Positions 2-64,000 of a stretch of DNA of 64,000 nt are shown here, one piece after another. The stretch's first letter is position 1; each line of letters opens with the position of its first letter. A model generated the notes under the pieces. The model worked only from the letters and a program-made list of their open reading frames with translations, did no database searches and was not told the origin of the DNA. Where the stretch lies: NCBI GenBank assembly GCA_052387775.1, contig JBQTIV010000051.1:375-64374 (forward strand), in the 5' to 3' direction. The DNA comes from Betaproteobacteria bacterium (GTDB taxonomy: Bacteria; Pseudomonadota; Gammaproteobacteria; Burkholderiales; JACQAP01). A program made the position numbers and the translations under genes.

Positions 2-631
2 GAGCTGAAAAGCTATCTCGACGGGCTTTCGGCGGTGACCCAGTCGGAGTACGACGGCTGGACCAAGCCCGAGAAGCTCGCCTTCCTGATCAATGCCTAC
101 AACGCCTATACCGTCGAGCTGATTCTCACCGGATATCCGGGAGTGAAGTCGATCAAGGAACTCGGTTCGCTCATCACCAGCCCATGGAAGAAGCGTTTCT
201 TCTCGTTGCTGGGCAAGGCGCGTACCCTCGACGATGTCGAACACGGCTTGATCCGCGCGGCGGGAGTCTTCGACGAACCGCGCATTCACATGGCGGCAAA
301 CTGCGCCTCGATCGGTTGTCCGGCGCTGCGCAACGAAGCCTACGTTGCCAGCAGACTGGAGGCGCAACTCGAAGATAGCGTTGTGCGCTTTCTTTCCGAC
401 CGGTCGCGCAATCACTTCAACCCGCAGAACGGCAGGCTCGAAGTATCGAAGATTTTCGACTGGTACGGCAAGGATTTCGCCGCGCGACAGGGATCGGTCG
501 AGGCCTGGCTGGCGCACTACGCTGCCCAGCTTGCCGACGAACCGAAGTACCAACAAACGATCCGCGACCGGAAGGCCAGACTGCAGTTTCTGGATTACGA
601 CTGGGCGTTGAACAGCAAGGATGAAGGATGA
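2..631 (+). CDS. DUF547 domain protein (5-prime end outside window)
   Basis: The frame is open from the window edge. Motifs KLAFLINAYNAYTVELIL, HMAANCASIGCPALR and DWYGKDF fit DUF547. The stop TGA at 629-631 lies inside an AAGGATG heptamer array. Confidence 0.8.
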   Translation, partial: ELKSYLDGLSAVTQSEYDGWTKPEKLAFLINAYNAYTVELILTGYPGVKSIKELGSLITSPWKKRFFSLLGKARTLDDVEHGLIRAAGVFDEPRIHMAANCASIGCPALRNEAYVASRLEAQLEDSVVRFLSDRSRNHFNPQNGRLEVSKIFDWYGKDFAARQGSVEAWLAHYAAQLADEPKYQQTIRDRKARLQFLDYDWALNSKDEG

Positions 632-695
632 AGGATGAAGTAAGTTCAAAGGCTTCTGATTCTCCTTCCGCCTTCCGCCTTCCGCCTTCATCCTT
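617..695. repeat. Heptamer-array hairpin element H1
   Basis: AAGGATG x3 at 617-640, a 23-nt spacer, then TTCCGCC x3 plus TTCATCC at 664-695. The arms form an imperfect inverted repeat. Read directly from sequence. Confidence 0.85.
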
Positions 696-62300: not shown

Positions 62301-64000
62301 ATGGCCGGCCGCCAGCAGCTTGCGCAGCGCCTGCAAAAGTTTCGCCACATCATCGAAGTGCAGGCCGGTGGTGGGTTCGTCAAAAAGAAACAGGGAACCT
62401 TTCGGCGAGGCGTGAGGCGTGAGGCGAGAGGCGGGAAAACCGCCTGCTCTGGCGAGGTGGCCGGCAAGCTTGAGGCGCTGCGCTTCGCCACCGGACAGGG
62501 TCGGTACGGGCTGGCCGAGTTTGACGTACTCCAGGCCCACATCCACCAGCGGCTGCAAGCGCGCGATAACCTCCGGGCGATCGGCGAAAAACATGGCCGC
62601 TTCCGACACGGTCATATCCAGCACGTCGGCGATCGACTTGCCGTTGACAGTCAGTTCCAGCACTTCGGCGCGGAAACGCTTGCCGTCGCAGTCGGGACAG
62701 CGCAGGTACACGTCGGAAAGGAACTGCATCTCCACGTGTTCGAAGCCATTGCCACCACAGGTCGGGCAGCGGCCGTTGCCGGAGTTGAAGCTGAAAGTGC
62801 CGGGGGTATAGCCACGCTCTTTTGCCGCAGGCTCCTTGGCGAAAAGATCGCGGATTGGATCCCAGGCGCCCACGTAGCTCGCCGGGTTGGAGCGCGTGGT
62901 GCGCCCGATCGGGGTCTGGTCCACCATCACCACTTCGGCAATGCGCTCGTGCCCGCGGAGCTCCCGGTGCGCTCCGGGCGGCTCGGTGGGCTTGCCCTTG
63001 CGCTTCAGGAGCGCCGCATAAAGCACGTCCTGAATCAGCGTGGACTTGCCGGAGCCGCTCACTCCGGTGATACAAACCAGGCGATTGAGCGGAATCGCGA
63101 CGTCGATGTGCTTGAGATTGTGTTCGGCGGCACCGAGTATTTCGAGCCTTGCAGTTTTGGAATCGACCGGTGAGCGCTCGATGCCCGCGTCGGCGCGCTT
63201 GCGTCCGCAGAGATAATCGCCGGTCAGCGACTTGGTGTTGCGCGCGAGTGCGGACGGCGTGCCGAAGAACACTACTTCACCGCCGCGTTCGCCCGGCCCG
63301 GGGCCGATGTCGAGGATGCGATCGGCCTCGAGCATGATCTGCGGATCGTGCTCCACCACCACCAGCGAATTGCCGGCATCGCGCAACTTTTGCATCACGC
63401 CTATCACCCGGCCCATGTCGCGCGGATGCAGGCCGATCGACGGCTCGTCCAGCACAAACAGCGTATTGGTAAGCGAGGTGCCAAGTGCGGTGGTGAGATT
63501 GATGCGCTGGACTTCGCCGCCCGAGAGCGTGCGCGACTGGCGGTCCAGCGTCAGATAGCCGAGACCGACCCGGTGGAGATAGGCGAAGCGTGCGCGGATT
63601 TCTCCGAGCAACTGATCCGTGGCCTCGTCCAACGGGGTGGGGAGATGCAGCGAAGCGAAGAATGCCCGCGACTTGTCGATCGGCAGCAGCACCAAGTCGT
63701 GCACCGTCAAGCCAGGCAGCGCGGCGAGCTGCGCATCGCTCCACTTCGTGCCGCGCGGCATGAAGCGCTTCCCCGTAGACAACGCGCCATTGGCATCTTC
63801 CTGCGTCCCCAGCCGCCATAACAAGGCATCCGCTTTCTGCCGCGTGCCGTTACAGGCGGCGCACGGGGTGTAGGCGCGGTACTTGGAGAGCAGCACGCGG
63901 ATGTGCATCTTGTAGCTTTTGGTTTCGAGCCAGTTGAAGAAACGGCGCACGCCGTACCAGGTGCCGGGCCAGGACTTCTTCCAGCTCACCCATTCCGGCT
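59301..64000 (-). CDS. Tandem-duplicated UvrA-family ABC ATPase (N-terminus outside window)
   Basis: Three complete GVSGSGKS Walker A sites and four LSGGE signatures are visible. A second full UvrA unit starts at VHVRGAREHNLKNIDL. The frame remains open to the window edge. Confidence 0.9.
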   Translation of the reverse strand, partial: PEWVSWKKSWPGTWYGVRRFFNWLETKSYKMHIRVLLSKYRAYTPCAACNGTRQKADALLWRLGTQEDANGALSTGKRFMPRGTKWSDAQLAALPGLTVHDLVLLPIDKSRAFFASLHLPTPLDEATDQLLGEIRARFAYLHRVGLGYLTLDRQSRTLSGGEVQRINLTTALGTSLTNTLFVLDEPSIGLHPRDMGRVIGVMQKLRDAGNSLVVVEHDPQIMLEADRILDIGPGPGERGGEVVFFGTPSALARNTKSLTGDYLCGRKRADAGIERSPVDSKTARLEILGAAEHNLKHIDVAIPLNRLVCITGVSGSGKSTLIQDVLYAALLKRKGKPTEPPGAHRELRGHERIAEVVMVDQTPIGRTTRSNPASYVGAWDPIRDLFAKEPAAKERGYTPGTFSFNSGNGRCPTCGGNGFEHVEMQFLSDVYLRCPDCDGKRFRAEVLELTVNGKSIADVLDMTVSEAAMFFADRPEVIARLQPLVDVGLEYVKLGQPVPTLSGGEAQRLKLAGHLARAGGFPASRLTPHASPKGSLFLFDEPTTGLHFDDVAKLLQALRKLLAAGHSLVVIEHNLDVIRASDWIVDLGPEGGDAGGEIVATGTPQQVAACVTSHTGGALREYETSLVPSLAPTQAEPRANAQATRYSSLNTHHCVHVRGAREHNLKNIDLSIPRERFTVVTGVSGSGKSTLAFDIVFAEGQRRYLESLNAYARQFVQPASRPDVDSVRGIPPTVAIEQRTSRGGSKSTVGTLTEIHHFLRLLFVKLGVQHCPDCKVPIEPQSEQAIAARLLREYRGGRIGLLAPLVVNRKGVYTELAKWARGKGHSYLRVDREFLPVSPFPRIDRFKEHVIELPVADLEVRPGNENLLREALKRALEYGKGVVHVIAPVDRIMKDEAMVEQVFSTRRACPSCGRSFPELDPRLFSYNSKHGWCPDCYGTGLQIADVGWDEERTRTGAEDHVLDSWIEWLEVDEPCPQCEGKRLNREALAVLWRDRSIADYGAQPVAGLAKLFADLELAGREREIARDLLAELGSRLGFLAEVGLDYLTLDRSAPTLSGGEAQRIRLAAQLGSNLRGVCYILDEPTIGLHARDNRILLDTLEKLERKGNTLLVVEHDEETIRRAHHLVDLGPGAGRLGGHVVAEGTIADLVKAPESVTGRFLAQPLRHPLVERRETTPRHPALEIAGAHLHNLRNIDVRIPLARLTCVTGVSGSGKSTLAHDVLYANLQRLVGARHGSLQRKSAGKRQKPKAEKSNSSLVTRHSSLDLIGCRSIGSADQIARVLEVDQAPIGKTPRSCPATYVGFWDAIRKLFAATTEARMRGYAPTRFSFNTAGGRCEGCEGQGLRKIEMSFLPDVKVSCEVCGGRRFNQETLAVRFKGKSIGDVLMMNVDEAVEFFSAHASIHHALRLLQDVGLGYLTVGQQSPTLSGGEAQRIKLVTELAKVRLGVEPATGEKSGPETPLASRLSPRALRTLYVLDEPTVGLHMADVEKLIRVLHRLVDAGNTVVVIEHNLDVMADANWIVDLGPEGGDGGGRIVAQGPPETVAKAQTHTGKVLKEFMRNRGA
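59592..59619. repeat. Intragenic heptamer array I1 (GCGAGGC GAGAGGC GTGAGGC GAGAGGC)
   Basis: Encodes ...PLASRLSPRA... on the minus strand, in the loop between the signature motif and Walker B of the last ABC domain. Confidence 0.85.
60205..60235. repeat. Intragenic heptamer array I2 (AGTGACG x3, AGTGATG)
   Basis: Encodes ...SSLVTRHSSLD.... It is followed by TTTTGCC/TTTCGGC-type repeats encoding KRQKPKAEK. Confidence 0.85.
62041..62071. repeat. Intragenic heptamer array I3 (TGATGAG TGTTGAG TGATGAG TAACGAG)
   Basis: Encodes ...ATRYSSLNTHH... exactly in the linker between the two UvrA units. Confidence 0.85.
62405..62432. repeat. Intragenic heptamer array I4 (GCGAGGC GTGAGGC GTGAGGC GAGAGGC)
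   Basis: Encodes ...PASRLTPHASP... at the position in unit 1 equivalent to I1. It is followed by the small hairpin AGGCGGgaaaaCCGCCT. Confidence 0.85.

Follow-up and report, generated by a model that had tools for sequence, protein, structure and literature searches.

Heptanucleotide arrays in a 64-kb Burkholderiales contig

The stretch analysed here (hereafter the window) is 64,000 nt long, covers positions 375 to 64,374 of contig JBQTIV010000051.1 (assembly GCA_052387775.1, deposited as Betaproteobacteria bacterium) and contains an ordinary set of housekeeping genes. Its intergenic spacers, and one of its genes, uvrA, carry short arrays of tandem 7-nt (in one case 8-nt) units, most of which, outside uvrA, form two inverted arms around a spacer. 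A comparison with related genomes revealed that these arrays are located at the 3′ ends of genes, that they turn a G-rich and often stop codon-bearing strand towards the gene that runs into them, and that the same gene ends stay occupied while the units change. The arrays are probably self-templating palindromes that are anchored at stop codons and driven by replication slippage.

The PfkB kinase of the window was used to search the GTDB species representatives, and homologues were found at 45 loci. The closer ones all belong to metagenome-assembled genomes (MAGs) of uncultured soil Burkholderiales/Betaproteobacteria and share at most 93% amino acid identity with the window protein, and the kinases annotated as Usitatibacter or Casimicrobiaceae share ~66–68%, placing the host of the contig in an uncultured soil lineage of Burkholderiales. 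The window and 45 related loci, 671 kb in total, constitute the clade sample used throughout this study, in which genes were called with a crude, home-made caller based on GC content at third codon positions (GC3). This sample contains 108 arrays with a period of 7 or 8 nt. Array density decreases with PfkB identity, from 3.0 per 10 kb in loci with ≥85% identity to 0.17 per 10 kb in those with <68% identity, at similar GC content.

Period-7 arrays of at least three copies were detected 14 times in the window, compared with a mean of 0.26 and a maximum of 3 in 100 dinucleotide-preserving shuffles, whereas each of the other periods between 4 and 12 gave at most three arrays in the same test. An initial annotation, made from the sequence alone, had proposed a dispersed family of heptamer-array hairpins at 12 loci and had named an excess over shuffled sequence as a check; this excess is clear, and 10 of the 12 loci are solid, but those at 48849 and 50707 are unconvincing. 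Tandem Repeats Finder placed period-7 arrays at 617–640, 664–689, 3587–3626, 9190–9215, 9276–9377, 11263–11337, 25823–25847, 59588–59621, 60205–60235, 62041–62069, and 62407–62433, and a pair of period-8 arrays at 2749–2772 and 2882–2913. The units were confirmed by direct reading of the sequence, and at least eight different units occur in these 64 kb alone.

Locus 1 lies between a DUF547 gene and a GT2 gene. Its G-rich arm (617–640, plus strand; 3.4 copies of AAGGATG) encodes the last four codons (KDEG) and the stop codon (TGA at 629) of the DUF547 gene, and pairs over a 23-nt loop with a C-rich arm (664–695, plus strand; 3.7 copies of CCTTCCG followed by CCTTCATCCTT) that is located immediately 5′ of the GT2 gene. 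The resulting hairpin has a minimum free energy (MFE) of −35.4 (z = −4.7). Locus 2 is composed of 8-nt units, with three copies of CACGAAGA (2749–2772, plus strand) starting 19 nt 3′ of the stop codon of a DUF3047 gene and four copies of TCTTCGTG, the exact reverse-complement unit (2882–2913, plus strand), on the other side of a 109-nt spacer (z = −8.3). Locus 3 is a single array of 5.7 perfect AAGGATG copies (3587–3626, plus strand) that replaces the native C-terminus of a DUF502 gene and contains its stop codon at 3599.

Locus 4 separates a GGDEF/EAL gene from a gene for an RRM protein. The arm on the GGDEF/EAL side (9190–9215, plus strand) comprises 3.7 AGTGATG-type units and holds the TAA stop codon of that gene at 9206, and the arm on the RRM side (9276–9377, minus strand) begins 6 nt past the RRM stop codon and comprises ~13 GTGAYGR-type units, including a 9-nt sub-array at 9334–9377. 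The core between them (9238–9258) is a canonical bidirectional intrinsic terminator (A-tract, GGGCCGC-GAT-GCGGCCC, and T-tract) that is conserved in relatives. Locus 5 is a nested element (11263–11337, minus strand; z = −3.7) that is located at the nrdJ stop codon (TGA at 11335–11337) and, read on the minus strand, has outer arms of the TGAAGGAG type and a central (TCCTCAA)n array. Locus 6 (25768–25862) is a second copy of this element and folds weakly (z = −1.3). The stop codons of four genes (DUF547, DUF502, GGDEF/EAL, and nrdJ, at the positions given above) are thus contained in the first units of an array. According to the initial annotation, the 7-nt period places TGA in all three reading frames, and inspection by eye agreed with this at 622, 629, and 636, at 3592 through 3620, and in the units downstream of the nrdJ stop codon; at 9192–9220 all three frames are likewise stopped, but by TGA or TAA rather than by TGA throughout.

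Two loci are doubtful members. Locus 7 (48849–48878, plus strand) is a degenerate CGTGATT repeat (65% matches, score 32) located 30–60 nt 5′ of a start codon, with neither a partner arm nor a fold (z = +0.2). Locus 8 (50716–50788) amounts to an imperfect palindrome of 33 nt, of an ordinary kind, in which the 7-nt periodicity is marginal (score 30); it is found ~200 nt 3′ of a sulfatase gene (z = −4.5).

Genomic position and polarity

In the clade sample, 92 of the 108 arrays are found beyond the called genes or on their borders, although these genes account for 75% of the sequence. Arrays occur at 1.30 per kb in convergent spacers, 0.91 per kb in tandem spacers, and 0.08 per kb in divergent spacers, and the enrichment at gene 3′ ends that the initial annotation had suggested looking for is therefore present. 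Within tandem spacers, arrays lie a median of 21 nt past the preceding stop codon and 102 nt ahead of the next start codon.

Thirty-nine arrays start no more than 30 nt from the stop codon that ends the preceding gene. On the sense strand of these stop-proximal arrays, G exceeds C in 34 and C exceeds G in 2 (i.e. 34 of the 36 with unequal numbers of G and C are G-rich), and a stop codon is present on the sense strand in 21 and on the antisense strand in 2. The TGA-bearing strand hence faces the upstream gene, as had been claimed, and the expected orientation bias of TGA was found in the sample as a whole. Because only the G-rich strand has internal stops, a plain count of ORFs (open reading frames) ending at arrays is biased, and a symmetric measure was chosen instead, namely the presence of a stop-free run of at least 100 codons that extends to a point 30 nt short of the array. 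In the clade sample, this criterion gave 49 cases of a long ORF next to the side that reads G-rich and 18 next to the side that reads C-rich.

The G-rich strand of the 92 non-coding arrays contains TGA 50 times, whereas each of the remaining permutations of these three letters is found 2 to 16 times. Among 72 heptamer units, YGA is found in 60 and TGA in 43, as against ~20 and 12 expected from letter-permuted units, and the YGANG core proposed in the initial annotation is thus real. Units lacking T often differ from TGA forms by a single change; for example, CGAGGGA adjoins TGAGGGA and TGAGGGG units in the related loci L007 and L008, in register with the stop codon.

The same polarity was observed in an independent set of metagenome contigs. 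A pattern of five GTGA units at 7-nt spacing matched at least 120 metagenome stretches, of which the 80 listed loci (L050–L129; 29–69% GC) were analysed. Among these 80 loci, 237 heptamer arrays and 42 inverted pairs were identified; the G-rich arm comes first in 36 of the 42 pairs and the C-rich arm in 3, and long ORFs abut the G-rich-reading side of 84 of 140 arrays and the C-rich-reading side of 33 (p = 4e-10). Low-GC contigs among the matches listed, which may include cyanobacteria, show the same type of array and the same polarity, and the rule held over this range of GC content among the matches listed.

Paired arms and hairpins

The two arms of an element are coupled in sequence. In the clade sample, 25 of 28 adjacent array pairs are composed of units that differ by no more than two mismatches from each other's reverse complement, and this holds over many different units (e.g. 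AGGGACG/CGTCCCT, CGAGGTA/TACCTCG, GGTGAAG/CTTCACC, and CACGAAGG/CCTTCGTG). Of the 25 coupled pairs, 22 start with a G-rich 5′ arm and 1 with a C-rich one, and in 2 the numbers of G and C are equal. Because the elements are palindromic, the rule that the G-rich arm comes first is true on both strands, and a gene arriving from either side therefore meets the G-rich arm first. The 8-nt family shows the coupling across genomes: the arms are kept while the spacer is not, and both arms covary in relatives (CGCAAAGG/CCTTTGCG and CACAGAGA/CTCTGTGC).

An arm–spacer–arm build had been described as usual for the family. This applies to loci 1, 2, 4, and 5, which fold with z-scores of −3.7 to −8.3 and, in this respect, are stable extragenic palindromes like repetitive extragenic palindromic (REP) sequences and bacterial interspersed mosaic elements (BIMEs), but locus 3 and the four arrays inside uvrA are single arms. 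Neither a search of the window against Rfam at gathering thresholds nor a tRNA scan of the window gave any match. The idea that the hairpins serve as intrinsic terminators in general was considered and rejected, as a terminator core is found at the RRM locus only and no U-tract follows the arms. In L042 (17384–17587), the whole hairpin between the DUF547 and GT2 genes has been tandemly duplicated together with the first bases of the GT2 gene, resulting in four arrays in a row.

Turnover, spacer inversion, and shared flanking sequence

The initial annotation had also called for a comparison of orthologous loci. In most relatives, arrays are present at the same gene ends, namely between the DUF547 and GT2 genes and at the ends of the DUF502, RRM protein, and nrdJ genes, but with other units and copy numbers, and this persistence of sites spans relatives whose proteins are 71–92% identical. 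An exact look-up of the RRM protein retrieved four contigs, and contigs encoding a 100% identical RRM protein carry from 2 to ~13 GTGAYNN units past its stop codon. The nrdJ site is empty in L002 and carries no more than a stub of an array in L003, whereas L004, L005, L007, and the window have long arrays; the neighbouring promoter and leader of a DEAD-box helicase gene are almost invariant. A comparison of the filled and empty nrdJ sites revealed no consistent target-site duplication and no fixed ends, the marks by which a miniature inverted-repeat transposable element (MITE) would be recognized.

The ~250 nt located 5′ of the DEAD-box helicase gene (10986–11250, minus strand) are near-invariant in a comparison with L002–L007, directly beside the hypervariable array region. 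They contain a promoter-like site (GAGACA, 17 nt, and TATAGT) and a long leader, and look like a conserved regulatory 5′ untranslated region (UTR), perhaps of the cold-shock type.

Inversion of the spacer was found in three independent cases. In the window, 66 nt of loci 5 and 6 are inverted relative to one another (91% complementary) beside a 40-nt flank in direct orientation (85%); the other two cases are L004 versus L007 at the nrdJ locus and L042 versus L006 at the DUF502 locus. Flanking sequence is also shared between loci. Locus 6 holds ~25 nt whose counterpart at locus 5 is the conserved −35 region of the DEAD-box promoter. The flank GGSGTTGAASAGC is common to loci 1 and 3, with 95% identity over 37 nt. 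The DUF502 protein of the window has lost its native tail, TEGKQIELVKP, and now ends with SKDEG directly before the stop codon; its tail matches that of the DUF547 protein, not those of its own orthologues, and the flanking bases have likewise shifted towards the DUF547 end. The promoter bases at locus 6 and the DUF502 tail suggest ectopic conversion between arrays, in which flanking sequence would have been dragged along.

Two further observations concern the surroundings of these loci. The hairpin-bearing spacer between the DUF3047 and DUF502 genes (2731–2950) is 220 nt long in the window and 1.3–2.1 kb long in relatives (L042, 13433–15345; L003, 13242–14926; and L007, 13201–15281), in which it contains at least one gene, whose product starts with MKRLVL; the short interval of the window may be the result of an array-bounded deletion. 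In the flank of locus 6, a 56-nt stretch (25855–25910) is 82% identical to 29666–29721, which lies inside a second RRM-protein gene (29539–29817). It translates as KKYAPDL(G/E)CTKIQ and is a gene fragment in intergenic DNA next to an array.

Arrays translated within uvrA

The uvrA gene of the window is a fused, double-length gene comprising two complete UvrA units. It is present as a partial ORF of 1562 codons (59301..63989, minus strand), and the presence of four arrays inside it, as initially annotated, is borne out: the ORF stays open through all four in frame. Site 1 (62407–62433, minus strand; sense unit ACGCCTC, 3.9 copies, translated as PASRLTPHAS) falls in the first UvrA unit, in the loop that connects its ABC signature motif to Walker B, and site 2 (62041–62069, minus strand; CTCATCA, 3.1 copies, YSSLNTHH) in the linker between the two units. 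Site 3 (60205–60235, minus strand; CGTCACT, 4.4 copies, NSSLVTRHSSL) lies in a variable loop of the second unit, and site 4 (59588–59621, minus strand; CTCGCCT, 4.7 copies, TPLASRLSPRAL) occupies the position paralogous to site 1. The arrays of sites 4 and 1 are 97% identical over 29 nt, whereas their flanks are 72% identical.

Twelve period-7 arrays of the clade sample fall inside genes according to the crude caller, 9 of them in uvrA. These nine are from six genomes and four sites, and the C-rich, stop-free strand is always the sense strand; of the other three, none of which is inserted in frame in a recognized protein, two are GC-rich triplet-like repeats and one is located 5′ of the likely start of a GT2 gene. 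An alignment of 43 homologues identified the four sites as indel-rich loops. Relatives carry heptamer-type peptides at the same sites (e.g. SRLSPHASRL and SSLIPHPSSL), and in other lineages these sites are filled with different inserts that are repeat-like or of low complexity, e.g. MGTVP and GDRPQFPE...NRGLSPI. The loops of UvrA thus appear to be permissive, collecting whatever repeat a genome carries.

At the variable sites of the UvrA homologues P0006, P0013, P0023, P0102, and P0103, the inserts MGTVP/GSVP and GDRPQFPE...NRGLSPI look like translated, genome-specific palindromic repeats, and elements of this kind may generally end up in the loops of UvrA. The uvrA gene analysed here (59301–64000) runs past the contig end; in relatives uvrA is located beside nrdJ, whereas in the window it is at the opposite contig end, indicating a rearrangement.

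Comparison with known repeat families

Short tandemly repeated repetitive (STRR) sequences of cyanobacteria are dispersed intergenic tandem heptanucleotides, with several unit families per genome. The present arrays are similarly composed of tandem heptanucleotide units dispersed in intergenic DNA, but the host is a Burkholderiales/Betaproteobacteria MAG and not a cyanobacterium, and the units are of the YGA type and, on an informal comparison, differ from the canonical STRR units. Rickettsia palindromic elements (RPEs) are in-frame insertions in coding genes at permissive surface positions, where they are translated; their palindromic units of 100–150 nt are unlike the tandem heptamers found here. 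REPs and BIMEs of Enterobacteria and Pseudomonas are abundant extragenic imperfect palindromes found in alternating orientations at 3′ ends and between cistrons, and are thought to stabilize the upstream mRNA. REPs are single palindromic units of 20–40 nt with a conserved head and are mobilized by REP-associated tyrosine transposases (RAYTs). The stems described here are instead made of tandem 7-nt units of heterogeneous sequence, no one unit is conserved in all copies (at least eight are present in the window), and no RAYT was found among the window ORFs. Background on REPs and BIMEs is available in PMC2817692 and PMC8266576.

The closest known counterparts are found in Xanthomonas (Rehm et al. 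2015, PMC4692102). There, GGGAATC-type heptamer arrays of 2 to 26 units number ~185 per genome, with 70–75 convergent inverted pairs per genome; 89–93% are intergenic, 7–11% are intragenic, and 7–8% lie between divergent ORFs, and the arrays lie much closer to the upstream ORF, at 28 nt on average, than to the downstream one, at 160 nt. Array length differs among species, and transcript analysis gave no clear strand preference (PMC4692102). The arrays of the present lineage resemble those of Xanthomonas in the excess of period 7, the location at 3′ ends, the rarity between divergent ORFs, the G-first order of the pairs, and the variation in copy number. They differ in that Xanthomonas has one dominant unit of the GGGNATC type with a G3 tract, read as a G-quadruplex, whereas many YGA-core units occur here and those of the window have no G3 tract, although some relatives have AGGGACG. 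Density is ~3 per 10 kb in the present lineage versus roughly 0.4 per 10 kb in Xanthomonas, the latter value being estimated from 186 arrays and a genome of ~5 Mb. The overlap with stop codons, spacer inversion, and co-transfer of flanking sequence seen here are not among the features reported in the available part of the Xanthomonas article (PMC4692102).

Heptanucleotide repeats have been described in several other groups. The same article cites three tandem heptanucleotides in Calothrix PCC 7601 and reports only a few inverted pairs for the GGGGAYT repeats of Nostoc (PMC4692102). As summarized in PMC4679880, Mrazek (2007) found heptanucleotides to be the most abundant class of long simple sequence repeats (SSRs), with four Burkholderia genomes in the top ten, and proposed polymerase slippage as the cause. 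In marine Beggiatoaceae, TAACTGA repeats, when read forward, provide a stop in each of the three frames, and they overlap the stop codons upstream of them; they are located mostly just 5′ of start codons, a role in translation initiation has been proposed for them, and a single unit is used, with one inverted set among 170 (MacGregor 2015, PMC4679880). Three-frame stops and stop-codon overlap are shared with the present arrays, whereas the 5′ location, the single unit, and the rarity of inversion are not. In Geobacter metallireducens, heptanucleotide-repeat elements within and between genes have been annotated as putative regulatory sequences, and 15 of the 16 class 3 sites consist of five tandem MTYCTGA repeats; the GC-rich unit GGACCGG has a copy number fixed at four, and no 3′-end rule was reported (PMC2700814).

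The statement in the initial annotation that no equivalent was known in proteobacteria therefore does not hold, since inverted heptamer pairs of Xanthomonas and heptanucleotide repeats of Burkholderia and Geobacter had already been described. The arrays are not a new class, their kind being known from Xanthomonas, Burkholderia, and cyanobacteria; what is new is a dense, multi-unit member of a poorly understood kind. They are, on balance, probably a lineage-amplified form of the STRR/heptamer-SSR class that is not carried by a transposase.

Origin of the arrays

The features of the arrays on which an explanation must be built are their position, polarity, arm coupling, turnover, spacer flips, and in-frame occupancy of uvrA; from these we infer the steps of nucleation, template switching, and conversion, as well as any function. 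We favour, with moderate confidence, an origin as slippage-driven, self-templating heptamer palindromes that are anchored at stop codons, need no dedicated transposase, and are tolerated, or possibly used, as REP-like 3′-end hairpins and three-frame stop traps. Arrays would nucleate in the TGA stop region, because a 7-nt duplication there cannot frameshift a protein. Slipped-strand mispairing would then lengthen and shorten them, intrastrand template switching (palindrome-templated copying) would make the partner arm and keep it complementary, recombination between the arms would flip the spacer, and ectopic gene conversion between arrays would homogenize the units within one genome. Selection may purge the orientation that lets an ORF run through the stop-free arm or that exposes the C-rich arm first. 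If the elements have a function, it would be as REP-like 3′-end or intercistronic hairpins with stops in three frames, and not as canonical intrinsic terminators. In coding DNA, arrays survive only in frame, with the stop-free strand as the sense strand, in the hypervariable loops of UvrA.

Several points weigh against this explanation. The stop-free units AGGGACG, CGAGGTA, and CACGAAGG show the same polarity as the others, and selection on stop codons alone therefore cannot account for the orientation; gene calls were crude, and p-values are inflated, as orthologous loci are not independent. Slippage, template switching, and ectopic conversion are drawn from comparisons of end states, none of them having been observed directly, and a regulatory motif common to both loci could instead account for the flank that loci 5 and 6 share. 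No evidence for a function at the RNA level was found: in tandem contexts, sense and antisense MFE show no asymmetry of the kind that G–U pairs would produce (8 versus 8). Past the distal arm, T is not enriched in the sense direction (mean 4.4 versus 3.8 of 8), so that there is no consistent U-tract, and a canonical terminator core is present only at the orthologous RRM locus (6 of 25 pairs). Mutational hot spots, and not function, could be the reason why the same sites stay occupied. It is also possible that a transposase is encoded elsewhere in the genome, of which the window represents only 64 kb.

This last point leads to the possibility that the arrays are MITE- or REP/BIME-like mobile elements moved in trans by such a transposase or RAYT, the arrays being its terminal or subterminal binding repeats. 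Near-identical composites at unrelated loci (loci 5 and 6 at 85–91%, and loci 1 and 3 at 95% over 37 nt), a lineage-specific density that decreases with phylogenetic distance (3.0 to 0.17 per 10 kb), and the presence of arrays in uvrA loops would be consistent with mobility. However, the filled and empty nrdJ sites lack a consistent target-site duplication and fixed ends, the units vary within the genome and between orthologous loci in a manner that is hard to fit to a single recognition sequence, the copied segments take in host flank (promoter and coding bases), and copy number changes in situ. In agreement with the initial annotation, no transposase domain or RAYT was found among the 50 window ORFs scanned against Pfam (essentially all of its long ORFs), which is weak evidence from 64 kb. 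Mobilization in trans is thus unlikely. Somewhat less doubtful, but still improbable, is a functional 3′ UTR RNA maintained by selection, in which YGA arrays bind an RNA-binding protein (of the RRM, cold-shock, or CsrA-like type) or hairpins set mRNA decay or termination. The same gene ends are kept over 71–92% protein identity, the arms covary, 34 of the 36 stop-proximal arrays that are informative have a G-rich or YGA-bearing sense strand, in many relatives the RRM-protein gene is followed by the array that is longest and best conserved, one intercistronic site separates the first two genes of an operon, and AAGGAUG resembles the GGA motif of CsrA. Against an RNA element stand the wide variation of units within one genome, the lack of a folding advantage of the sense strand and of a U-tract, the lack of an Rfam match in the window, and the translation of the same arrays inside uvrA; moreover, where the core is a canonical terminator, terminated transcripts would miss the distal arm.

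Formation of G-quadruplexes, as proposed for the GGGAATC arrays of Xanthomonas, is very unlikely to explain the family. The architecture and position are as in Xanthomonas, and some relatives do have AGGGACG, GGGGTGA, or GGGAAAA arrays of 4 to 13 units with G3 runs 4 nt apart, but the window units (AAGGATG, GTGACGR, GTGAGGC, TTGAGGA, and CACGAAGA) lack GGG and so cannot form three-tetrad G-quadruplexes, and the family-wide core is YGA, not a G-tract. Equally improbable is a role of the uvrA arrays as a contingency switch, in which slippage by one out-of-frame 7-nt unit would toggle nucleotide excision repair and produce a reversible mutator state. Four arrays do lie in this one gene of the window, uvrA arrays are found in six genomes, and arrays elsewhere do change copy number. 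Nevertheless, all uvrA arrays observed are in frame in the assembled consensus, their copy numbers are low (3 to 5), site 2 is a former spacer between two fused uvrA units, and other lineages fill the same loops with unrelated repeats or low-complexity inserts, which points to permissive loops and not to a switch; most arrays of the family are located 3′ of genes, where slippage cannot switch a gene. Assembly artefacts, finally, have a negligible probability. Some contigs do end inside arrays (L002, 12621–12675; L006, 9831–9925; L028, 1–86; and L016, 1–20), so that arrays break assemblies, but the same kind of array is found internally, at orthologous positions, in dozens of independent MAGs from differing studies and assemblers, and arrays are in frame within a conserved ORF.

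Other repeats in the window

A second, unrelated dispersed repeat, AAGKTGYCAGGAACSTTTTTGAC, is present at 44729–44751, 49066–49088, and 59243–59265 and, in inverted orientation, near 42679–42715 and 58106–58133. The repeat comprises a 5-bp stem, a 7-nt loop, and a T-run past the hairpin; all five copies are intergenic and at least three are located just 3′ of gene ends, and they may represent a family of small terminator or REP-like hairpins. Two longer matches, a 151-nt inverted match of 77% (21546–21696 and 44134–44284) and a 163-nt direct match of 87% (55622–55784 and 58272–58434), are probably paralogous coding segments.

Implications

Arrays of heptanucleotides were recognized decades ago, and by 2007 they had been shown to form the most over-represented class of long SSRs in many bacteria. 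The lineage described here is an unusually dense case, with ~3 arrays per 10 kb and many related genomes available for comparison, and this comparison exposes stop-codon anchoring, arm covariation, spacer flips, carry-over of flanking sequence, replacement of C-terminal codons, and repeated colonization of UvrA loops. The polarity rule, in which the G-rich, TGA-bearing arm is turned towards incoming genes, is a concrete and testable constraint on any model. For genome annotation, the arrays matter in that they alter gene 3′ ends, yield spurious low-complexity peptides (e.g. SRLTPHAS and SSLVTRH), and break assemblies.

As a tentative extension, which we regard as possible and no better than that, a single rule may govern heptamer arrays in genomes of widely differing GC content: seeding at stop codons, which would give rise to the YGA core, self-templated growth into palindromes, and survival only when the G-rich, stop-bearing arm faces genes. 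If true, this rule would link cyanobacterial STRRs, the ‘G4’ repeats of Xanthomonas, the TAACTGA repeats of Beggiatoa, and the present arrays as a single class of transposase-free, self-propagating palindromes, a class that would remodel the 3′ ends of genes and occasionally colonize protein loops such as those of UvrA.

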